NCBI GenBank assembly: GCA_005222975.1 | Contig: NJBI01000084.1 | Coordinates: 1-11,257 of the forward strand | DNA length: 11,257 nt | Direction: 5' to 3' | DNA from: Promethearchaeota archaeon Loki_b31 | GTDB taxonomy: Archaea > Asgardarchaeota > Lokiarchaeia > Sigyniarchaeales > SOKP01 | In this document: in pieces, positions 1 through 11,257 of the stretch | How positions within the stretch are numbered: the stretch's first letter is position 1 | Layout: each line of letters begins with the position of its first letter | Notes under the pieces: model-generated | Database searches by the model: none | The model's input: only the letters and a program-made list of their open reading frames with translations | Told to the model about the DNA's origin: nothing | Translations under genes and position numbers: made by a program

Positions 1-382
1 TCAGTTCTTTAAAGTAAAAATATAGAAAGGCTACCAGAAAAGGTGAAAGAATAACAATAAAGATCCATGTATCTTCCACGAGATCAAGAATAATACCGCC
101 GCCGATTACAACAAAAAGCGCTAAAATATGCCAAAAAATTTGGAGTTCTACCGCTAATTTTGCAGTATCCCAATTTTTTCTTAGATACGCGATTAAGGAA
201 GTTGAGCCATATGTCATTAAAGAAACACCAAGCATTCTTCCTACTATGGGATCATCAAAAGGCCAAGCTACAAATTCTATGTACCACTCGGTGAAAAAGA
301 GGTATGTTATGCCGTAAATATAACCTACAATGAATTCTAAAATAAATAAAATCTTTAATCCTTTTGATATTTCATTAACCAT
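1..382 (-). CDS. Hypothetical multi-pass (~4 TM) membrane protein, 3'-partial (runs off the left edge)
   Basis: Manual translation from ATG at 382: MVNEISKGLKILFILEFIVGYIYGITYLFFTEWYIEFVAWPFDDPIVGRMLGVSLMTYGSTSLIAYLRKNWDTAKLAVELQIFWHILALFVVIGGGIILDLVEDTWIFIVILSPFLVAFLYFYFKEL. It has 127 codons with no stop and four hydrophobic segments. It is absent from the ORF track, presumably because it has no stop in the window. Confidence 0.85.
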   Translation of the reverse strand, partial: MVNEISKGLKILFILEFIVGYIYGITYLFFTEWYIEFVAWPFDDPIVGRMLGVSLMTYGSTSLIAYLRKNWDTAKLAVELQIFWHILALFVVIGGGIILDLVEDTWIFIVILSPFLVAFLYFYFKEL

Positions 383-582
383 TATTATCTACACTCTTAT
401 TGAGATTTTTAATTTAATTTGATTTGGTTTGATCACTCGGTGAAAAAGAGGTATGTTACGCCATAAATATTAGCTACAATGAATTCTAAAATAAATAAAA
501 TCTTTAATCCTTTTGATATTTCATTAACCATTATTATCTACACTCTTATTGAGATTTTTAATTTAATTTGATTTGGTTTGAT
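285..582. repeat. 149-bp tandem direct duplication (285-433 and 434-582), 145/149 identical
   Basis: Both copies start cactcggtgaaaaagaggtatgtta and end aatttgatttggtttgat. The four mismatches are at 310/459, 314/463, 322/471 and 324/473. Confidence 0.95.
433..531 (-). pseudogene. Truncated 32-aa duplicate of the membrane protein N-terminus
   Basis: ATG at 531 gives MVNEISKGLKILFILEFIVANIYGVTYLFFTE, then a TGA created by the duplication junction (433-435). Confidence 0.65.
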
Positions 583-601
583 TGAAATTTATGTGAATAA
601 T

Positions 602-609
602 TATATAAA
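602..609 (-). promoter_or_regulatory. Candidate archaeal TATA box (TTTATATA) for the membrane protein gene
   Basis: Minus-strand TTTATATA lies just outside the duplicated unit. The AT-rich background makes this weak. Confidence 0.3.
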
Positions 610-646
610 GATTTACAGTTTTGTTAAAAATATCGAAAATTCTCTC

Positions 647-1994
647 TTATAGATCATTTATTTCAAAATCTCTTATAATTCGAATTAATTTATTTGAAGT
701 AGGATTTCTTATTGGTTTCTCAAAAATAACTTTTATATCAGGTTCAATACACTTATAGGAAGCAAACACATTTTTTACATTTCTTGAAATGCTATTAATT
801 ATTTGCTCTTTATCAATATTTTCAGCTTTAAGATAAATCCTAATTAAAATTGTTGTGTAATCTTTTTGAATTGCTTGATACTCTTCAATCTCATCTGAAC
901 TGGTAATAATGGCTCTTCGGATGTAATCAGGAAAAATACATTGCAACTCATCACAATCGATTCGCTGAGCCCAATATAAATCGTCAGTTCTACCTAAAAT
1001 TTTTTCAATTACTCTAAATGAAGAACCACATCTACATGAAGAATCTGATATTAAAATACTGTCATCTAATTCAAATCTTATAATAGGTTGTGATCGTTTG
1101 TTTAGATCCGTGATAATAATTTTATGTGGGTTCTCCTGGTTGTGTTAATTGTCCATCAAAACCTACAGTTTGAACATATATAAGATCCTCGTTTAGGTGC
1201 AGGCTAGCATATTTACATGACATAGCAATTGGCCCTTCACTACATTGATAAATTTGATGAACTTTTACACCAAAAATTTGTTCTAGTTCATCCTTAACAT
1301 CAGGAGAAAGTACTTCCGCGTAAGATACTATCCTTTTAGGTTTGATATTTAATCGGCTTGCATTCACCTCTTTAGCTAAAATTTGAAGCATAGAAGGTGG
1401 AGCAGATAAAATATTAGGATTTAATTCCTCCAACTGATCTTTAATATTTTCAAGAGTATTTAATTGGCTAATGTAAGTTAATCTCTGTCCAAATTTGCTC
1501 ACATTAAATGCGGGAGTAGAAATCCGAAGAATAAAAGCCCATTTTATTTTTAAAACCCTTGGAAGAGGAAATCGTGCAAAAAGTGCAGCTTGAAGATATT
1601 TCTCTTCTTGTGGACTGGTTATCACAATTCCTTTGTTCCCACTTGTACCTGAGGACATAGCGAGGTTATATCCATAAAATCGTTTATTATAGCTTTGGGT
1701 TTTTTCAATTTCTAAACAAAAATTAAGCATATCATGTTTAGTAAATCCAAGAGTGTTATAATCAGATAAGTTTTCCATCATCAGTTTCTTATTTGTAATA
1801 GGAAGAGACCATACATCTTTTAGATTAAATCCTCTAAAATGTTTATGAAAGTACTTTGAATTATTATATGCAAAATTTACAAGTGCTTGTGCCTTTTTTA
1901 GTTGGTAAATCTCCAATTTTTCCTTATTCATGAATTTGAATCTCCACTTACACGCTAAGAAAAAATTCAGAAAAGAATCTGTTTCGAGCCTCAT
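647..1994 (-). pseudogene. Phenylacetate-CoA ligase (PaaK)-like / F390-synthetase-related adenylate-forming enzyme, split by one frameshift near 1127 (about 448 aa if repaired)
   Basis: ORF 1122-1994 carries the P-loop MSSGTSGNKG, plus SYAEVL and HQIYQCSEG. The +1 frame from 1126 reads HKIIITDLNKRSQPIIRFELDD...CRCGSSFRVIEKILGRTDD and runs straight into ORF 647-946. These are the expected C-terminal motifs of the family. Confidence 0.85.
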
Positions 1995-2351: not shown

Positions 2352-5105
2352 ATGACTGAATCTAAAGAAACAAAAAGTGTTAAAAAAGAAAGGTCTAAAA
2401 TTTATAGTGAAATCATTAATAAAGTAATAGCTAACGCTAATTATTGTTACGATTGTAATCGTTGTGTTAACGTATGTCCTACAAGTTTTTTAGGTACATT
2501 TTTTCCAAGAAAATTGATTACTGATTTGACTTTCCTACCGCTAGAGGAAGCGTTAGAAAACAATAATATTTGGAACTGCTTGACTTGTGGGCAATGCATG
2601 GAGTATTGTCCTATGTTTAAGGATAATACTGGTGTAGATTTTGTAGAAATCATTAAAAGTCTCCGCACACTTACTTCCGAATCTGAAGTTTTACAGACGG
2701 AACAACTTGAATGTCATCACGATAGAGTATATTCAAGTTTACCTCAATTAATGGCAAATGACAATGTTAGTATCGATAACAAACTCGGGTTTTTAGATTA
2801 CACTAATTTAAAATTTACAGACAAAGGGGAAATCGCCTATTTTATGGGGTGCCTTCCTTTTATGAATTCCATTCCTCCGTGTTCTAATGCGTGTCCCGCA
2901 GGAGTTGATGTTCAAGGTTATATCTCATTAATTTCGGAAGGTAAATTTCAAGAAGCTATTGATTTAATTAGGGAAAGCAACCCTTTTCCTATGATATGTG
3001 CGCGAGTTTGTACGGAGCCTTGTGCGCTTGAATGTAATCGTAAAGATATCGATGAAGCTCTTGGTATTCGATCCTTAAAGAGATTCATCGCAGATTGGGA
3101 ATTAAACAACAAAGCAAAATCCAATATTAAACCAGTTAAGCAATTTAAGGACAAAATAGCGATAATAGGTGCTGGTCCCGGAGGGTTATCCGCAGCTTAC
3201 TTTTTAGCGAGACAAGGTTATAAACCTACTGTGTTTGAAGCAGAAATCTATAAAGGAGGGACTTTACGATCTGGGATTCCAAGATATCGTTTACCTGCCT
3301 ACATTTTAGATTATGAAATTGACTTTATCGAAAAAATGGGAGTTGAAATAAAATTAAATACTCCCATAGGACCTAAATTATCTTTTGAAAATTTAGAAAA
3401 ACAGGGCTATAAAGCCTTTTTTATCTCGATAGGGCAGCAGACTTGTTTAGGGCTCAAAATGGAAGGAGAGAACCTTAAGAACGTTTTATGCGGTCTAAAT
3501 TTTCTCAAAGATAAAAATTTAACAAAAAAACAATTTGATTTCAAAGATAAAATTATAGGCGTAGTAGGTGGAGGAAATGTTGCTATGGATTCTGCAAGAA
3601 CTGCTTTAAGATTAGGTGCTAAGAAAGTTGTAGTGATTTATCGTCGTTCTGAAAAGGAAATGCCCGCTCAAGAAGAAGAAATTGAAATGGCAAAGGAAGA
3701 AAATGTTGAGTTTCAATTTTTAACAAATCCAACAAAAGCAATCGGAGATCAAGAAGGAATTCTTAAAGAAATAGAATGTATTCGGATGGAGCTTGGTGAA
3801 CTAGATAAATCTGGTCGGAGAAGACCAATTCCTATAGAAGGATCAGAGTTTAAAATGAACCTTGATTTTCTGCTACTTGCTATTGGACAAGGTACAGAAT
3901 TAACGCTTTTAGAAGCTGCTCATGGCCAATTAGAAATAGATCGGTGGGGGAGAATTATAACGGACGAATTAACAATGCAAACTAATGTTCCTAACATTTT
4001 TGCAGGGGGAGATGTAATCCCAGGCGAAGGAATAGCTGTTAGAGCCATAGGAAATGGAAATAATGCAGCGATTTCTATTGATAAATATCTTAGAGGCGTT
4101 GATTTAAAGAAAAATAGAGTCATTAGAAAGTATTCTAAACTTGCTCCGATACCTAAAAAAGAAGCCAGTAAAATGCCCAAAGAATGTATAGACTTGTTGC
4201 CTATACAAGAAAGATTAAGAAGCTTTAATGAGGTCGAATTACCTCTCACGGAAGAAAGTGCAATCAAGGAAGCAAGTCGGTGTTTAAATTGCAATATTTG
4301 TTGTAGTACAGATCAAAAATTAGATGTTTATGTAAATTCATGCGATGAATCTAATGTTCAAGATTGTAGTTATGGTATACAACCCGTTGTTCCTTACTAT
4401 AACGCGTTGGATTTCCTTAAGATTCCAAGAGTAGTTATAGGTCTTTTAAACCAAAAAGAAATAGTGCCTGTAGTTCTTTCAAACGAAAAATGTTGTGGAC
4501 ACGATAGTTTATGGCAAGGAGATATTGATACATTTGAAAAGTTAGCAAGACACAATGTTCAGTTATTCAACGATGCTGGAGTAAAAACATTAATACTTAG
4601 TTGTGCTGAGGGTTATCATACATGGAAATACGAGTATCCAAAATTATTTAAAGGAACTGATGAGTTTAACTTTGAGATTTATCATGTAACAGAGTACATC
4701 CTAAAGGAACACTTAATAGACGATGTTAAATTCCCAATTTCTGAAAAAATTAGAGTTACATATCACGACGCATGTAGATTAGGACGATTGGGTAATGTTT
4801 ACGATGCACCCCGCGAAGTATTAAATAAGATTCCATTCATTGAACTAATTGAGATGGAGAGTAATAAAAAAGACGCTTTATGTTGTGGAGTTTCTGCTTA
4901 CATAAGTTGTAATGAGTACTCAAGAGAGATTCAAGCTACCCGTATTAAAGAGGCGATCGATACTGGTGCCGAATATCTAATTGTTAGTTGCCCCAAGTGT
5001 TTAGCCCACTTTAATTGTTATTTGAACGAAGAAAAAGAATTAAAAAACAAAATTAAAGTCGTGGATCTAACAAGCTTTATTGGTAAACTCTTGTTTCTCA
5101 ACTAA
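2352..5105 (+). CDS. Heterodisulfide-reductase-like (HdrC + 2 CCG domains, HdrD-type) protein with an inserted GltD/NfnB-like FAD/NADPH oxidoreductase module
   Basis: HdrC-type motifs CYDCNRCVNVCP and WNCLTCGQCMEYCP. CCG start YFMGC (C167). GltD-like motifs PPCSNACP, CARVCTEPCALEC, GAGPGG, GIPRYRLP, GGGNVAMD, YRR and EASRCLNC. CCG motifs EKCCGH...SCAEG and YHDAC...CCG...SCPKC. Confidence 0.9.
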   Translation: MTESKETKSVKKERSKIYSEIINKVIANANYCYDCNRCVNVCPTSFLGTFFPRKLITDLTFLPLEEALENNNIWNCLTCGQCMEYCPMFKDNTGVDFVEIIKSLRTLTSESEVLQTEQLECHHDRVYSSLPQLMANDNVSIDNKLGFLDYTNLKFTDKGEIAYFMGCLPFMNSIPPCSNACPAGVDVQGYISLISEGKFQEAIDLIRESNPFPMICARVCTEPCALECNRKDIDEALGIRSLKRFIADWELNNKAKSNIKPVKQFKDKIAIIGAGPGGLSAAYFLARQGYKPTVFEAEIYKGGTLRSGIPRYRLPAYILDYEIDFIEKMGVEIKLNTPIGPKLSFENLEKQGYKAFFISIGQQTCLGLKMEGENLKNVLCGLNFLKDKNLTKKQFDFKDKIIGVVGGGNVAMDSARTALRLGAKKVVVIYRRSEKEMPAQEEEIEMAKEENVEFQFLTNPTKAIGDQEGILKEIECIRMELGELDKSGRRRPIPIEGSEFKMNLDFLLLAIGQGTELTLLEAAHGQLEIDRWGRIITDELTMQTNVPNIFAGGDVIPGEGIAVRAIGNGNNAAISIDKYLRGVDLKKNRVIRKYSKLAPIPKKEASKMPKECIDLLPIQERLRSFNEVELPLTEESAIKEASRCLNCNICCSTDQKLDVYVNSCDESNVQDCSYGIQPVVPYYNALDFLKIPRVVIGLLNQKEIVPVVLSNEKCCGHDSLWQGDIDTFEKLARHNVQLFNDAGVKTLILSCAEGYHTWKYEYPKLFKGTDEFNFEIYHVTEYILKEHLIDDVKFPISEKIRVTYHDACRLGRLGNVYDAPREVLNKIPFIELIEMESNKKDALCCGVSAYISCNEYSREIQATRIKEAIDTGAEYLIVSCPKCLAHFNCYLNEEKELKNKIKVVDLTSFIGKLLFLN

Positions 5106-5240: not shown

Positions 5241-6902
5241 TTAAACTAAGATTTTTATTTCCTCGCCGAATACTATCTTATTAGCAATTTCAAAAGCGAT
5301 ATTGTAATCAAAGACTTTTTTACCTTTTGTCTTTAAAGCTTTCTTAAAGATTTCCCTCTCAATTTTGTATTTTAATCGTCCTATGTTAAGAGCACCTATC
5401 GCATAAATACCAGGATAGAACTCCGTATTATAATAGTCTGGTTTCATTCCTTCTATTCCATAGGGAGGAACCAAATTAATATCTACGACAATTTTATTTG
5501 GAGGAAGTTGGTTCATTAATTTTTTTGAGATCATTTGGACTCCTGCTTTACCAACAGACCATATTATATCTGCGTCCCTCACTATTTTCAGATATTGTTC
5601 ATCTGAATTTGCTGGCTCTCCTATAATCTTAGTGGCACCTCTTCCTGCCTTCTTAGTCAAATCTTTTGCCAATTCTTTTACGAATTGTTCTCTTCTTGAA
5701 GTAATGACTACTTTTGCTTTAAGTTTTGAAGCAATTAGAGCGGAAATTTGCCCTACAGGGCCAGTTCCTCCTAAACAAATTATCTTTTTACCTGATAAAT
5801 CTGAAAATCCATGTTTTCTTGCAACCTCTAGTGTTTTTGCAACTATTGCTGAAGCTGTTGTATGAGAACCACGTGGATCTATAATTACAGGAGATTCAAA
5901 TGGAGGAATAATTGTTTTCAAAACTTCCTCCGCAATTTTTTCACTTTCTATAACATCAGAACCACCAACAAAATAAACTGAAGAAGCTCCCGCTTTTCGA
6001 GAGAACATAGCATCTTGAACTAGCCTTGAGACGCTGTCTGCTTTCATTCTAGAATATGGTATTACTATATCAAATCCCGCATCATAGCCCATATTTGTAT
6101 CAAAAGGAGAACAATACTCATCCGTATCAAAAAAGTATAAAATTCTTTCTTCTTTTTCTTTTTTTATAACTTTTATAGGCATTATTTCAAGTATAGATCT
6201 ATTCAATAAGTCATTAATCGATGTTTCTTCATCAGGATATTCTGTAACTTTCTTAAGATTAATTATTTCAATTCCTATATCCAATTCTTTAGCTAAAAAT
6301 GTGATGCCATCAAAATGACTTTTATCAGTAATAAAAAATGCTTTTAATTGGTTTTTTTCTTGTTTTTTGGCTAATTCTAAGATAGTCATCATCATCCAAG
6401 CTTCACGGACTTTATATCTTATTTCATCTTCTTGTGCTTTGAAATCATCTTTTAATAATTGTTTCCAAATAATTAACTGTTGAAAATTAGGATCGTTATA
6501 ATGTACACGACCCATTTTTTTATAACTTTCAATCTCTTCTGTGATTTTTTTTATAAAACCTTTCTTATCCATTAGTGGTGCTGAAATTACATTTAATGCA
6601 TAATCCGGAATATCCACAAATTCATATGGGATATCTGCATTTAGAAAAATCGCTCCAAATTCATCATCAATAGATGGTTCTTCACTTGAACGCATTCCTT
6701 TATCTTCTACTACGAAATTAGGGCGGTATTTGTTCACTAAATCTTTAATAAATTCTATGTACGCCCTAGAAACAAAAAATAAATTACCCAGTATTCCTTC
6801 TTCTTTTGGTAATTCTAAAGCCCAATCTATCCTAAATTCACTCTCAACTAATATTAATTTAAGTTTTTTTTCTTTTAATCGTTTTAATTCTAAAACTTGC
6901 AT
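5241..6902 (-). CDS. NAD(P)-dependent methylene-H4MPT (or -H4F) dehydrogenase, MtdA/MtdB family, with an additional ~215-aa N-terminal domain
   Basis: The C-terminal ~300 aa (5241-~6150) has SPFDTNMGYDAGFD..IPY, VQDAMFSR, PPFESPVIIDPRGSHTTA, the Rossmann motif GGTGPVG and DINLVPPYGIEG. The start is placed at ATG 6902 (MQVLE) because GGAGG lies 10 nt upstream and it aligns with the paralog's MEVLE. The alternative ATG 6911 overlaps the upstream stop (ATGA). Confidence 0.88.
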   Translation of the reverse strand: MQVLELKRLKEKKLKLILVESEFRIDWALELPKEEGILGNLFFVSRAYIEFIKDLVNKYRPNFVVEDKGMRSSEEPSIDDEFGAIFLNADIPYEFVDIPDYALNVISAPLMDKKGFIKKITEEIESYKKMGRVHYNDPNFQQLIIWKQLLKDDFKAQEDEIRYKVREAWMMMTILELAKKQEKNQLKAFFITDKSHFDGITFLAKELDIGIEIINLKKVTEYPDEETSINDLLNRSILEIMPIKVIKKEKEERILYFFDTDEYCSPFDTNMGYDAGFDIVIPYSRMKADSVSRLVQDAMFSRKAGASSVYFVGGSDVIESEKIAEEVLKTIIPPFESPVIIDPRGSHTTASAIVAKTLEVARKHGFSDLSGKKIICLGGTGPVGQISALIASKLKAKVVITSRREQFVKELAKDLTKKAGRGATKIIGEPANSDEQYLKIVRDADIIWSVGKAGVQMISKKLMNQLPPNKIVVDINLVPPYGIEGMKPDYYNTEFYPGIYAIGALNIGRLKYKIEREIFKKALKTKGKKVFDYNIAFEIANKIVFGEEIKILV

Positions 6903-6907
6903 TATTT

Positions 6908-7537
6908 TCATCCCTCCTTTAACATTACGATTGATTTTAATTTCTCTTCTCGAATATCATATTTTATGACTTTGATATTATATTCTTCAAATAATTTTTT
7001 CAGTTCAGAAATTAAATCTTCATGAGCAAAATGGATTATAGATAAATTATCATTTTTGATGTTATTTACAACATCTAATATTTTTTTTACAATCCATTTT
7101 GGTTTTATGGTATATTCTAATAAGTTTTTAGTATATTCCACTTTATCTTTTAACAAATATATCCAAGAGTTTAAGCTCTGAGCTTTAAATGTGTCTTTTT
7201 TATTATTCAAAAGAAGTTTTTCATATTCTTGCTCTAATTCTTCTATCTGTACTTCCAAGTCTAAAAGCTCAACATAAAAATAAGATTTAATACTTTCAGG
7301 GATTTCAACTTCGTAATAAGGCAAATGGAATTTCTCTATAAACTCTGATAAAGGAGTTTGATAATATTTTTTAACATCGGGATCGTTAAAATCAACAATT
7401 GCAAACTTAAATTTTTCTGCTTCTATGATTTTTTCTAAATTACTATTATGTAAACTTAATAAATCTCTGTCTTCTCTTCTTATTAAATAGATATTAACCG
7501 TTTTATTTTTTATAGGATGAAACTCTAAAACTTCCAT
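6908..7537 (-). CDS. Hypothetical protein (209 aa), stand-alone paralog of the N-terminal domain of the downstream Mtd fusion
   Basis: Long ORF abutting the next gene, with collinear similarity by eye: MEVLE/MQVLE, LPYYEVEIPE/IPYEFVDIPD and QSLNSWIYLLKD/QQLIIWKQLLKD. Confidence 0.85.
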   Translation of the reverse strand: MEVLEFHPIKNKTVNIYLIRREDRDLLSLHNSNLEKIIEAEKFKFAIVDFNDPDVKKYYQTPLSEFIEKFHLPYYEVEIPESIKSYFYVELLDLEVQIEELEQEYEKLLLNNKKDTFKAQSLNSWIYLLKDKVEYTKNLLEYTIKPKWIVKKILDVVNNIKNDNLSIIHFAHEDLISELKKLFEEYNIKVIKYDIREEKLKSIVMLKEG

Positions 7538-8026: not shown

Positions 8027-8911
8027 TTGCCATTCGAAATTTTAGAGAAAAGAGAACTTGGGACTAGTGGTATAGTGTTTGAAATGATAATATCTACTCC
8101 TTTAATCGCTCGAAAAGCGTATGCGGGAAATTTTATATTACTAAGAATCAATGAAACTGGAGAACGGTTTCCATTAACCATTGCAGATTACGATCGAGAG
8201 AAAGAAACGATAACTATAGTATTTCAAGTTGTTGGAAAAAGCACGAAATTACTCTCACATTTAGAAGTAGGGGATATGATACTTGATGTAGTGGGGCCTT
8301 TAGGAAATGAAATTCATATAAAAAAGTACCAATATCCCGTAGTGATAATTGGAGGTGGTGTGGGTATTGCACCATGCTACCCTCAAGCAAAAGAATTAAA
8401 GGAAGCAGGAAATAAAGTTATTTCGATATTAGGTGCTAGAAATACCGAATTATTGTTTTGGAAAGACAAAATGAGCTCAGTAAGCGATGAATTAATTATT
8501 TGTACAGATGACGGAAGCGAGGGGATTAAAGGAGTTGTCACTGTACCACTTACAGAAATAATGAAAAGAGAAAAAATAAGCATTGTTATCGCAATTGGAC
8601 CTTTAATAATGATGAAATTTGTTGCTCTTACAACTAAAGGGTCTGGCGATTTACCTAAAGTAAAAACATTTGTCTCCCTAAACACAATTATGATTGACGG
8701 AACTGGAATGTGTGGCGGTTGCCGCTTTTCAACGCTTAACGGAGGAGTTCAATTTGCGTGTGTTGATGGTCCCGATGTCGACGGTCATATCGTAGATTTT
8801 GATAATCTATTGAAACGCGCTAATAGATTTATTGATCAAGAGAAGGAGTCCTTAGAATGTTACAACGAAGAATGTAGAGCTTTAAAAAAACTTAGGAGTG
8901 AAGTGTCTTAA
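8027..8911 (+). CDS. nfnA: NfnA/SudB (FNR/PyrK-like FAD, NAD and [2Fe-2S] small subunit of NADH-dependent reduced ferredoxin:NADP+ oxidoreductase)
   Basis: Motifs GERFPLTIAD, VVGKST, DVVGPLG, GGGVGIAP, TDDGSEG, IGPLIMM and the Asp/Cys [2Fe-2S] motif MIDGTGMCGGCR...ACVDGP. TTG start, directly upstream of an NfnB-containing gene. Confidence 0.92.
   Translation: MPFEILEKRELGTSGIVFEMIISTPLIARKAYAGNFILLRINETGERFPLTIADYDREKETITIVFQVVGKSTKLLSHLEVGDMILDVVGPLGNEIHIKKYQYPVVIIGGGVGIAPCYPQAKELKEAGNKVISILGARNTELLFWKDKMSSVSDELIICTDDGSEGIKGVVTVPLTEIMKREKISIVIAIGPLIMMKFVALTTKGSGDLPKVKTFVSLNTIMIDGTGMCGGCRFSTLNGGVQFACVDGPDVDGHIVDFDNLLKRANRFIDQEKESLECYNEECRALKKLRSEVS
8894..8901 (+). promoter_or_regulatory. Shine-Dalgarno-like site AGGAGTGA for the gene starting at 8913
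   Basis: Lies 11 nt upstream of ATG 8913, inside the 3' end of nfnA. Confidence 0.55.
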
Positions 8912-8912
8912 A

Positions 8913-11257
8913 ATGGAAAAGCAAAGATCTTTAGTTAAAATATTACTTAAAAATAAAGAACAGATTCTGGAGTCAGGAAAATATAACGAGGCAGAATTTG
9001 GAGATTTAATTAGCGAGTTAACCGATGTAGAGCGTTCTAGACAAGAAATTCTAGAAAAAATAGAAGAACATGGCTCTATTGATATTCCTAAATTGAAAAA
9101 AGAACTACAATTATCAGAAAAAAATCTGTTATGTAATATTGAGTATCTAAAAGAGTTAGGCTTTTTAGGATTTATTGGGGAGAAACCAAGGTTTTTTCAA
9201 GATGTAGTAGAAATTTCTAAACAAAACGGTATTTTTCCTAATGTAACAATAATTAAAGACAAAAATCTGTGCAATGGTTGCGGTTTATGTGCTTCCATTT
9301 GTCCAGTTGGAGCAATAAACTATTCGGAGGGGACATTTGATTTTGACGAAGAAATGTGCATTGATTGCGGGTTATGCTATACTTGCTGTCCACGAACATT
9401 CTTTCCGAAGGTTTTAGAGGCCCCTGAAGAAAACAATGCTCCTGATATTAAATTTTTAGAGCAATTCAATTATTATCAGGAAATTTGTACTGCTCAAACA
9501 ACTGATGAAAGAATAATAGCAGTTGCTCAAGATGGAGGAATTGTGACTACGCTGCTGAAAATGGCGTTTCAACAAAAATTAATCGACGGTGCTTTAGCTG
9601 TAAAAGAAGGAGAAGAACCTCTAAAACCGTTACCACATTTAATTGAAGATGAAGATGAACTCCTACATACAGCAGGGACAAAATACACAAATGCTCCTAT
9701 TTTAAAAATATTTCAAGGCTGTAGGGGTCACGATAAATTTGCAGTAGTGGGTACCCCTTGTATCATGAAAGCGCTTAAAAAAATTTCATTTTTTCCGTTT
9801 AATAGACCATTTTGTGATAAGATTGCTTTAAAGATCGGATTGCTTTGCATGGAATCGTTTGATTACAAAAAAATTGGTGAACTTTTAAAAAATGAGTTTA
9901 AATCTACTCCTGCTGATGTTAAGAAAATGGATATTAATAAAGGGCGTTTTATAATCTACGATCATAACGGTTCTGCTTTTGATGTTCCAATAAAAAAAAT
10001 TAAAAAGTATGGTCGGTTCGGTTGCTTTTTTTGCGACGATTTGACATCGATACATGCTGATATTTCCGTAGGATCTATTGGTTCTGATCCTGGCTGGTCA
10101 ACGGTATTTATACGGACTAAACGAGGTGCTGAATTCTTTCAAAAAGCTTTGGATCTTAATATGATCGTTAAGAAGGAGATTAAAGAAGATAGTAAAAGTT
10201 TTGAATCTCTAAGTAGAATAGCAAAATCTAAATTAAAGAAGTTTGAAGAATATCATCGCCCAAAGATGATTGAACAAGACCCCAATATTAGGAAAAATAA
10301 CTTTGAAGAGGTTCCTAAGGGATTGACTATTGATATGGTCAAGTTAGAAACACATAGATGCTTACAGTGTGGAGACCCGCTCTGTGTTACTGGATGCCCC
10401 GTTAACATAAGAATTCCTCAATTTATAAAATTATTGAAGCAAGAAAAATATATTGGGGCTCTATACGAAATAAAATCATATAATTTATTGCCCGCTATTT
10501 GTGGAAGAGTTTGTCCGCAAGAATCTCAATGTGAAAAATATTGTTTATTAAGTGGTCTTGGGGAACCAATTGCAATAGGATATATGGAAAGATTCATCGC
10601 AGACTGGGAAAGAGAAAATAATCTTAAAGAGTGTCCCGAATGCGCAGCTCCTAAAGGTATTAAAGTTGCAGTTATAGGTTCTGGACCGGCGGGTTTAGCT
10701 TGTGCTGGAGAACTTGCGATGAATGGCTACGATGTCACTATATTTGAAGCGTTTCATGCTGGTGGAGGTGTATTAACTTACGGAATTCCAGAGTTTAGGT
10801 TGCCAAAAGATATAGTCAAAAGCGAAATTGAGACTTTAAAGATGTTAGATGTTAAAGTTGAATATAACGTAATTATTGGTAAAACTTTAACGATCGATGA
10901 TTTGAAAGAACTGGGATTTAAAGCCTTTTTTATTGGAGTTGGAGCAGGACTTCCAATATTTATAAAAATACCGGGAATAAACTTAAACGGCGTCTTAACT
11001 GCTAACGAATTCCTCACTCGATCGAATTTAATGAAAGGTTTTAAGTTCCCTGATTACGATACTCCTATTAAAATTGGAAAAATAGTAACTGTTATAGGAG
11101 GGGGAAATGTCACTTTAGATTCCGCTAGAACCGCTTTACGATTAGGTGCTGAAAAGGTTATTATTGTTTATCGTAGGTCCGAAGTAGAGATGCCTGCGAG
11201 AAGAGAAGAATATCATCACGCTTTAGAAGAAGGCGTTGTTTTTCAATTCTTAACAAA
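8913..11257 (+). CDS. nfnB: Fusion protein, 3'-partial (at least 781 aa): helical/wHTH domain + 2x[4Fe-4S] ferredoxin + FrhB (FpoF/FqoF-like F420-binding) + NfnB/SudA large subunit
   Basis: One open frame from ATG 8913 to the edge. Ferredoxin: CNGCGLCASICP (9270) and CIDCGLCYTCCP (9357). FrhB: AQDGGIVT, AGTKY, VVGTPC, IGLLCMESF and GCFFCDD..ADISVGSIG..GWSTV. NfnB from ~10257: RKNNFEEV, RCLQCGDPLCVTGCP, ICGRVCPQESQCE, GSGPAG, YGIPEFRLP, GGGNV and YRR. Confidence 0.92.
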   Translation, partial: MEKQRSLVKILLKNKEQILESGKYNEAEFGDLISELTDVERSRQEILEKIEEHGSIDIPKLKKELQLSEKNLLCNIEYLKELGFLGFIGEKPRFFQDVVEISKQNGIFPNVTIIKDKNLCNGCGLCASICPVGAINYSEGTFDFDEEMCIDCGLCYTCCPRTFFPKVLEAPEENNAPDIKFLEQFNYYQEICTAQTTDERIIAVAQDGGIVTTLLKMAFQQKLIDGALAVKEGEEPLKPLPHLIEDEDELLHTAGTKYTNAPILKIFQGCRGHDKFAVVGTPCIMKALKKISFFPFNRPFCDKIALKIGLLCMESFDYKKIGELLKNEFKSTPADVKKMDINKGRFIIYDHNGSAFDVPIKKIKKYGRFGCFFCDDLTSIHADISVGSIGSDPGWSTVFIRTKRGAEFFQKALDLNMIVKKEIKEDSKSFESLSRIAKSKLKKFEEYHRPKMIEQDPNIRKNNFEEVPKGLTIDMVKLETHRCLQCGDPLCVTGCPVNIRIPQFIKLLKQEKYIGALYEIKSYNLLPAICGRVCPQESQCEKYCLLSGLGEPIAIGYMERFIADWERENNLKECPECAAPKGIKVAVIGSGPAGLACAGELAMNGYDVTIFEAFHAGGGVLTYGIPEFRLPKDIVKSEIETLKMLDVKVEYNVIIGKTLTIDDLKELGFKAFFIGVGAGLPIFIKIPGINLNGVLTANEFLTRSNLMKGFKFPDYDTPIKIGKIVTVIGGGNVTLDSARTALRLGAEKVIIVYRRSEVEMPARREEYHHALEEGVVFQFLT

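Follow-up and report, generated by a model that had tools for sequence, protein, structure and literature searches.

We found that the contig NJBI01000084.1 (our label C73) of the metagenome-assembled genome of Promethearchaeota archaeon Loki_b31 (GCA_005222975.1), which in its entire length of 11,257 bp is the window analysed here, encodes an HdrD-like protein of 917 amino acids (aa) in which a flavoprotein cassette of the NfnB/GltD type is nested inside the first CCG domain, and our analysis confirmed that this arrangement is real and conserved. The genome is 3.5 Mb in size with 30% G+C, and its completeness and contamination are 92% and 6%, respectively. The window protein is referred to below as P0001, HdrD-like proteins with the insert as long forms, and uninterrupted HdrD-like proteins of 388-418 aa as short forms. 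Homologues of the long form are annotated in public databases only as 'FAD-dependent oxidoreductase' or 'heterodisulfide reductase-related iron-sulfur binding cluster'. An earlier reading of the window made from its letters alone (the sequence-only reading) had placed the motif YFMGCLPF at aa 163-170 and key cysteines at C167, C714/C715 and C751, and all of these numbers are correct in the 917-aa translation. The gene and its parts, in order along the chain, are:

2352..5105, plus strand: whole gene, 917 aa, HdrD-like protein with nested NfnB/GltD-type cassette (open reading frame [ORF]; Pfam and NCBIfam matches; full-length homologues at 52-97% identity).
2424..2615, plus strand: HdrC-type ferredoxin domain for two [4Fe-4S] clusters, aa 25-88, with C32, C35, C38, C42, C76, C79, C82 and C86 (Fer4_8/9/10/17; HdrC chains 5odc_C and 9sfi_E).
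2826..2870, plus strand: first strand and first Cys (C167) of CCG domain 1, aa 159-173, severed from the remainder (end of the short-form profile match; HdrB superposition; strand E161-164 in the model).
2871..4388, plus strand: 506-aa insert, aa 174-679 (give or take 1-2 residues), a permuted NfnB/GltD-type cassette for NADPH, flavin adenine dinucleotide (FAD) and two [4Fe-4S] clusters (boundary scan; PRK12771; StnC fold match; cassette of P0114).
2874..3113, plus strand: iron-sulfur (Fe-S) part of the cassette, aa 175-254, with C177, C181, C216, C220, C224, C228 and K243 (Fer4_20 profile positions 30-112, 8e-25).
3153..4052, plus strand: FAD and NADPH Rossmann folds, aa 268-567, with GAGPGG at 273-278, GGGNVAMD at 406-413, YRR at 430-432 and EMP at 436-438 (Pyr_redox_2, 4e-32; alignments with StnC and NfnB).
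4203..4301, plus strand: segment of aa 618-650, N-terminal in canonical NfnB but C-terminal in this cassette, with C644, C647 and C650 (Fer4_20 positions 2-57 at aa 622-672).
4302..4388, plus strand: variable linker of ~29 aa leading back to the CCG domain, aa 651-679 (poor conservation; variable length; predicted local distance difference test [pLDDT] values of 61-71).
4389..4646, plus strand: remainder of CCG domain 1, aa 680-765, with C714, C715, C751 and E753 and without a fifth Cys (partial CCG profile match; resumption of the short-form profile; invariant residues).
4755..5012, plus strand: complete CCG domain 2, aa 802-887, with C808, C844, C845, C880 and C883; C853 and C889 are invariant too (CCG positions 1-84 of 85, 65.7 bits).

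The sequence-only reading had claimed that the first CCG domain is split by an inserted module, and that this is a domain insertion rather than an end-to-end fusion. Both claims were borne out by comparison with short relatives from the same kind of organism (388-418 aa, with a Fer4 dicluster domain and two CCG domains), which are 54-62% identical to aa 680-917. Aligned by MAFFT with nine uninterrupted relatives of 388-416 aa, the window protein shows one large gap, from aa ~174 to ~681. A hidden Markov model (HMM) of 414 positions, built from 94 uninterrupted relatives of 388-418 aa, matched the full protein in two pieces that are contiguous in the profile: positions 1-173 at aa 1-174 (202 bits), ending just past the strand that carries C167, and positions 175-413 at aa 682-916 (361 bits). 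When the insert was excised (aa 1-173 joined to aa 680-917), the same profile gave a single continuous domain over positions 1-413 with 581.7 bits. In a scan of 408 boundary pairs, the highest score was obtained when aa 1-174/175 and 681/682-917 were kept; this peak and the two HMM pieces together define the insert as the 506 aa given above. It starts 6-7 residues past C167, in a loop of CCG domain 1. Between C167 and C714 there are 546 residues, as the sequence-only reading had stated (~546), and this distance falls to 40 after excision, compared with 39 in the short relatives. The same reading had rightly taken the module for a complete NfnB/GltD-type unit, but the limits that it gave, aa 175-651, do not hold, as the real insert comprises aa 174-679, including the permuted segment and the linker. 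Among the long forms the insert is 497-512 aa in length, and the variation sits in the linker after C650.

The identity of the insert is clear from its matches: PRK12771 hits it at 468 bits, the best sequence matches are StnC and NfnABC (E 1e-105 to 1e-119), and NfnB of T. maritima (4ylf_B) follows at E 4e-97. Like other members of the NfnB/GltD family, it has FAD and NAD(P)H Rossmann folds and a domain for two [4Fe-4S] clusters, and the whole protein would accordingly hold FAD, an NADPH site and [4Fe-4S] clusters. Its order, however, is not that of canonical NfnB, in which the C-x2-C segment lies N-terminal of and contiguous with the C-x3-C-P motif; in the window protein, this segment follows the flavoprotein core. 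Residues 618-650 (F-N-E-V...E-A-S-R-C-L-N-C) align with the N-termini of canonical NfnB proteins (4ylf_B 14-44 and 5jca_L 16-47). In the alignment with T. maritima NfnB, aa 619-649 pair with residues 14-44 of that protein, and aa 175 onward with its residues from 45 on; the four Cys of T. maritima NfnB form a single motif, C39-x2-C42-x4-C47-x3-C51-P. By this alignment, the motif is divided between the two ends of the insert, with C644/C647 at the C-terminal and C177/C181 at the N-terminal end. A single cluster-binding motif thus contains both the entry and the exit of the chain, and the two ends of the insert are therefore predicted to meet at one [4Fe-4S] cluster, and this junction cluster is predicted to lie at the base of the insert, ~10 residues from C167. 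A module whose ends adjoin in this way would be geometrically suited to nesting.

StnC K170 is the Lys ligand of the FAD-proximal cluster, whereas bifurcating NfnB has Glu there; the StnC flavin was shown not to bifurcate, whereas the FAD of NfnB does (PMC10482914). By alignment, the equivalent of StnC K170 in the window protein is K243, at the position where NfnB of T. maritima and P. furiosus has its Glu. The hallmarks of a bifurcating NfnB, namely Glu at the proximal cluster and an NfnA partner, are therefore lacking: the Lys is invariant among long forms, and the NfnA-like gene in the window overlaps a separate FrhB-NfnB gene. Those of the StnC/NfnABC type, a permuted cassette nested in a host Fe-S domain and Lys at the proximal cluster, are both present. 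The stretch Y-R-R-S-E-K-E-M-P-A also resembles its counterpart in NADPH-binding StnC. R313 aligns with both StnC R239 and NfnB R201 and hence does not discriminate between the two types.

The host part has the domains of an HdrD, the heterodisulfide reductase (Hdr) subunit. HdrC chains 5odc_C and 9sfi_E match the N-terminal dicluster domain at E ~1e-10, and this ferredoxin-like domain contains two CxxCxxCxxxC(P) motifs. Two CCG domains (PF02754) with an HdrB-like fold follow, the first of which is complete only when aa 159-173 and 680-765 are joined. The partial Pfam CCG match at aa 691-752 covers profile positions 17-78 of 85, so that the first 16 positions, with the first Cys, are absent there, and the stretch E-I-A-Y-F-M-G-C(167)-L-P-F resembles this absent start. 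The canonical Hdr CCG motif has the form C-x31-39-CC-x33-36-C-xx-C, with five Cys in each domain. Motif 2 of the window protein fits it (C808-x35-C844 C845-x34-C880-xx-C883), but motif 1 does not (C167-x546-CC, or x40 once the insert is excised, and C751-A-E-G instead of CxxC). With only four Cys, CCG motif 1 is therefore not a canonical HdrD site, and its cluster, with four Cys and an invariant Glu, may differ from that of HdrB. No hdrE-like or cytochrome-like gene lies within the 11-kb window; the rest of the genome was not searched for hdrE.

An AlphaFold2 model computed from a 74-sequence alignment (mean pLDDT 86.2; predicted template modelling score [pTM] 0.87) was used in a VIA-align fold search against 48,161 chains. 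The insert matched StnC (8oh5_C; Z 46.4; root mean square deviation [rmsd] 2.1 Å over 474 residues; model 170..893), NfnABC (9n5v_A; Z 45.1; rmsd 2.4 Å over 476 residues; model 172..893) and T. maritima NfnB (4ylf_B; Z 37.9; rmsd 2.1 Å over 410 residues; model 173..586). The host part matched the HdrD-like EtfD of M. smegmatis (9ojn_A; Z 24.6; rmsd 3.4 Å over 366 residues; model 11..917) and HdrB (8rvu_B, chain 1..271; Z 20.6; rmsd 2.5 Å over 237 residues; model 159..917). Residue 1 of this HdrB chain superimposes from model residue 159, and the match runs from the C167 strand, over the insert, to the C-terminus. Because the superposition spans both sides of the insert, the model lends indirect support to C167 being in its canonical place beside C714, C715 and C751.

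The sequence-only reading had proposed a search for the architecture elsewhere, and such searches showed that it recurs. More than 100 full-length homologues of 900-930 aa with 52-97% identity were found, from sources labelled Promethearchaeota, Lokiarchaeota and other Asgard. In a survey of 300 further genomes of the phylum, comprising 68 of the window's family and 232 from 29 other families, the long form was present in 39 of the former and in none of the latter; counting the window's own genome, it occurs with in-frame junctions in 40 genomes. Of 40 genomes sampled from the window's family, 28 have the short form, whose distribution is mostly complementary to that of the long form, with three genomes (G101, G155 and G167) having both. 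All of the putative cluster ligands are invariant in 68 long forms: in the host, the eight HdrC-type Cys, C167, C714, C715, C751 and E753 of CCG domain 1 and C808, C844, C845, C880 and C883 of CCG domain 2; in the module, C177, C181, C216, C220, C224, C228, C644, C647, C650 and K243, together with R313. Between P0001 and P0005, the insert is 80% and the host part 74% identical. At the edge of contig C84 of the window genome (C84:6-260, minus strand) there is a fragment with 69% identity to aa 17-101, and the genome probably has a second HdrD-like paralogue of the same subfamily, the fragment being too short to be called a short or a long form.

The principle of a nested cassette is already known, and the new part is the HdrD host with its insertion site in a CCG loop. 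The sequence-only reading knew of no description of such a protein, and our full-text literature searches likewise found no paper describing this cassette nested in the CCG domain of an HdrD. The nearest parallels within Hdr systems are HdrL and HdrA9-11 of ANME-1, large HdrA proteins with an NfnB/GltD-like insert of ~500 aa in a ferredoxin domain (PMC2702500, PMC9012536). In these proteins, too, the same kind of cassette is nested in a protein of an Hdr system, where it is regarded as the entry point of NAD(P)H to Hdr chemistry. However, the host in the window is an HdrD, the insertion site is a loop of the catalytic CCG domain, next to a cluster ligand, rather than the ferredoxin domain of the flavoprotein HdrA, and the polypeptide has no HdrA flavin. 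The GltD part of StnC, residues 102-565, is placed inside a NuoG/HydA-like domain (PMC10482914). StnC (8oh5_C) and the NfnABC large subunit (9bov_A, 9n5u_A) share with the window protein the permutation that puts the 'N-terminal' NfnB segment behind the flavoprotein core, as well as the Lys at the proximal cluster, and StnC further shares the nesting of the module in another domain. Nevertheless, the host of StnC is NuoG/FdhF-like, its partners are the HydBC-like StnAB, it has no CCG domains, and its C114 is replaced by Val in the window protein.

Among HdrD-like proteins, the uninterrupted Asgard proteins (annotated as '(Fe-S)-binding protein', e.g., P0142) come from the same family of genomes as the long form, and apart from the missing insert they resemble it closely, with 52-59% identity over the whole host part, the CAEG motif and the additional pair of Cys in common. 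In Syntropharchaeia and 'Ca. Methanoxibalbensis', end-to-end GltD-HdrD fusions (P0120, P0242 and P0244; 860-950 aa) unite the same modules in one chain, but in the linear order of cassette, Fer4 dicluster, intact CCG1 (mostly with CxxC) and CCG2. In both the cassette and the host part, their kinship with the window protein is only distant, with branches that fall outside its clade, and to judge from these sequences they arose by a separate fusion. Canonical HdrD (of HdrDE) and HdrB/HdrC (of HdrABC) have the same HdrC-type dicluster followed by two CCG domains, with a complete CCG motif 2; in the window protein, by contrast, 506 aa interrupt CCG motif 1, from which the fifth Cys is also missing, and the organism is an Asgard archaeon not known as a methanogen.

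The host-part tree unites all 28 short forms in one clade with 100% support in the Shimodaira-Hasegawa-like approximate likelihood ratio test (SH-aLRT), with the 18 long forms on the opposite side and the root not placed. Short and long forms thus appear from the tree to be old sister lineages. Neighbouring genes shared by the two forms in one genus had raised the idea of recent positional conversion, and this was rejected, the short forms being a separate clade with 100% support. That the insert was gained rather than lost is a direction assigned by parsimony, because all other CCG proteins are uninterrupted.

The cassette has relatives in other hosts of the same lineage. The cassette nested in the HdrA-like protein P0114 is 57% identical to the insert, and for the insert's nearest relatives, the cassettes of Asgard HdrA-like proteins (P0114, P0116 and the 1648-aa giant in L035), identity ranges over 52-57%. 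In a tree of cassettes, the HdrD inserts fall within a clade (starred; 97%) together with cassettes nested in the HdrA-like P0114 and P0116 and in the FrhB-like P0245 and P0257. The sister group (95%) is the cassette of HdrA-HdrA-MvhD giants of 1648 aa, whose genes directly follow short hdrD in two genomes from this family. The cassette therefore seems, on the evidence of these trees, to have moved between host proteins within the lineage. The cassettes of P0245 and P0257 (817-821 aa) branch within the diversity of the HdrD inserts. FrhB_FdhB_C is matched in these two proteins in two stretches, the best of which (profile positions 79/89-148) comes after the cassette, and this suggests that the cassette is nested within the FrhB_FdhB_C domain too. 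Forcing all HdrD inserts into one clade cost 46 log-likelihood units (approximately unbiased [AU] test, p 0.013), a value to be read with the group having been named post hoc, when the tree had already been seen. The 1648-aa giant directly after short hdrD (L035:10482-15428 and also L037:10742-15688) consists of an HdrA-like N-terminus, the nested NfnB cassette (aa 157-657), a second HdrA-like unit, Fer4 and MvhD (FlpD), and it is an Asgard counterpart of HdrL; the corresponding giants in L038 and L044 have no cassette.

Taken together, these data lead us to favour, with a probability of roughly 0.6, a reading in which the cassette is a non-bifurcating NADPH input port wired into the HdrD-like clusters, and the protein reduces a substrate at the CCG site. 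NADPH would reduce the FAD of the cassette, and single electrons would then pass from FAD to the Lys-ligated proximal cluster, on to the junction cluster and further to the CCG and HdrC-type clusters, with the substrate, most plausibly a disulfide, being reduced at the CCG site. The flavin would serve as an input port without bifurcation, as in StnC, and the HdrC-type domain could offer a second port for ferredoxin or for the tungsten aldehyde:ferredoxin oxidoreductase (AFOR) and the polyferredoxin whose genes are often adjacent. NADPH has a potential of ~-320 mV and a disulfide such as that of coenzymes M and B (CoM-S-S-CoB) one of ~-140 mV, so that bifurcation would not be needed. Several observations weigh against this reading. 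The four-Cys CCG motif 1 (CAEG) is common to long and short forms, and with four Cys instead of five a canonical noncubane cluster at CCG1 is uncertain. The YRR..EMP stretch of the second Rossmann fold is present in 24 of the 68 long forms, the window protein among them, but in the other 44 it is replaced by D-I-L..L-K (aa 430-438); the use of NADPH may thus not extend to the whole family, and the replacement suggests a changed or lost NADPH specificity in the largest subgroup, that of the 920-aa proteins. No disulfide substrate or thiol-cofactor pathway was identified, the genome not having been searched for CoM/CoB synthesis. The window genome has at least 10 HdrA-like loci, and given these genes and the linkage to AFOR and polyferredoxin described below, the HdrD-like protein may work in a complex and with another physiological partner. 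The sequence-only reading had gone on to infer a single-chain NADPH:(hetero)disulfide oxidoreductase in need of neither HdrA nor HdrE; our data support this in part, and both a (hetero)disulfide as substrate and independence from HdrA would be no more than possibilities. Finally, the path of the electrons between the clusters, like the direction of their flow and the substrate, is one that we infer.

Electrons could also run the opposite way. The protein would then be the NADP+-reducing electron exit of a tungsten aldehyde oxidoreductase system, an analogue of AorC, the FAD subunit of bacterial AorABC, and electrons would pass from aldehyde to NADP+ by way of AFOR, polyferredoxin, the HdrC-type clusters, the CCG clusters and the cassette FAD, the CCG clusters being wires with no disulfide turnover. 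In 27 long-form loci, a tungsten-type AFOR (PF01314/PF02730) and a polyferredoxin of ~185 aa are the commonest neighbours, being found within 5 kb in 15 loci from three genera and, in two genera, directly downstream on the same strand, and CCG proteins such as EtfD, GlpC and LutA serve reactions other than disulfide turnover. Nevertheless, the 27 loci come from related genomes and the neighbour counts are not independent, the pair is missing from the other 12 loci, and the window has no adjacent AFOR, the AFOR-polyferredoxin pair of its genome lying next to HdrA-like genes where contig C61 ends. The full conservation of both sets of CCG cysteines, moreover, argues for more than a wire, and we consider such an exit possible but unlikely. 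The linkage to a ferredoxin-dependent AFOR would also suit a single-chain bifurcating or confurcating enzyme without HdrA, in which the cassette FAD splits the electron pair of NADPH, sending one part to a high-potential disulfide at the CCG site and the other to low-potential ferredoxin, reached through the HdrC-type domain or the AFOR polyferredoxin, and HdrD takes the place of NfnA. In its favour, the module is a homologue of NfnB, which bifurcates at its FAD (PMC10482914), and the Arg equivalent to NfnB R201 is invariant, but StnC has this Arg too, and the ligand of the proximal cluster is Lys as in non-bifurcating StnC and not the Glu of NfnB. Short-form paralogues do adjoin HdrA-HdrA-MvhD giants, which are typical of Hdr systems that bifurcate: each of the five short-form loci examined has such a giant following on the same strand, directly or one gene on, and two of the giants carry the cassette. 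On balance we judge a bifurcase of this kind improbable; if it were true, it would be the smallest Hdr-type bifurcase known, born of domain nesting in the archaeal lineage closest to eukaryotes. An assembly chimera of hdrD and gltD-like genes, or a decaying or non-functional gene, might be suspected in a short contig of 11.3 kb from a metagenome-assembled genome with ~6% contamination. The same in-frame architecture is, however, present in 40 genomes and in more than 100 protein clusters (NCBI, JGI, ENA and Logan), down to 52% identity, the ligand residues are all invariant, the fold is predicted with confidence and the insert ends exactly at the borders of the host profile, which leaves practically no likelihood for such an artefact.

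Anaerobes depend on Hdr-type enzymes at the core of their energy metabolism, and Asgard archaea have many Hdr paralogues without an assigned role. The HdrD-like long form would be a compact link between the NADPH pool and Hdr-type clusters without HdrA in the chain, and it may help in identifying the thiol, disulfide or other substrate of Asgard Hdr systems; being a single polypeptide, it is a tractable target for expression. It also adds HdrD, as the fourth host, to a recurring pattern in which a circularly permuted GltD/NfnB cassette is nested in NuoG-like, HdrA and FrhB-like proteins. A permuted cassette with both ends meeting at one Fe-S cluster may be regarded as a plug-in NAD(P)H port.

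In the window, the HdrD-like gene stands alone on its strand, with a divergent AMP-binding (PaaK-like) gene upstream and two convergent minus-strand genes downstream. The other features of the window are:

1122-1994, minus strand: 290-aa ORF with an AMP-binding (PaaK/F390-synthetase-like) domain (domain match).
5241-6911, minus strand: 556-aa protein with the N-terminal domain of methylene-tetrahydromethanopterin (H4MPT) dehydrogenase (Mpt_N, aa 268-345) behind ~260 aa without assignment (domain match).
6908-7537, minus strand: 209-aa protein without Pfam match, overlapping the 556-aa gene (ORF).
8027..8911, plus strand: NfnA/PyrK-like Fe-S flavoprotein (DHODB_Fe-S_bind; 14-nucleotide overlap with the next ORF).
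8898..11255, plus strand: fusion of FrhB-like and canonical (unpermuted) NfnB parts, cut by the end of the contig (orthologue in L039).

The product of the NfnA/PyrK-like gene is probably the partner of the FrhB-NfnB gene product and not of the HdrD-like protein, and the two could form an F420-linked Nfn-type enzyme. The FrhB-NfnB gene joins a winged-helix-like N-terminus to a Fer4 dicluster, both FrhB domains (N and C) and unpermuted NfnB; its L039 orthologue, of 916 aa, shows FrhB_N/C, Fer4_20 positions 1-112 and Pyr_redox_2. Linkage of this gene pair to the long form was seen at 7 of the 27 loci, all but one from the genus to which the window belongs. An in-frame TAG had been suspected in the FrhB-NfnB genes of relatives and was rejected: tblastn with the full protein found no internal stop, and the signal came from matches that read past the end of the gene. 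A NuoE/F-like gene was found neither in the window nor in the 27 long-form loci examined. The gene pair for the 556-aa and 209-aa proteins recurs upstream of short-form hdrD in L044. A 99-aa ORF at 647-946 lies on the minus strand, like the 290-aa AMP-binding ORF, from which it is separated by a 175-nucleotide gap, and a frameshift or stop may have split a single gene into these two. The 396-aa gene upstream in L040 was considered as a counterpart of the PaaK-like gene and discarded, as the two show no similarity. In another genus (L041, L058 and L060-L064), two to three tandem genes for Ras-family small GTPases and a gene for a 1200-aa SNF2-type helicase lie just upstream of the long form.

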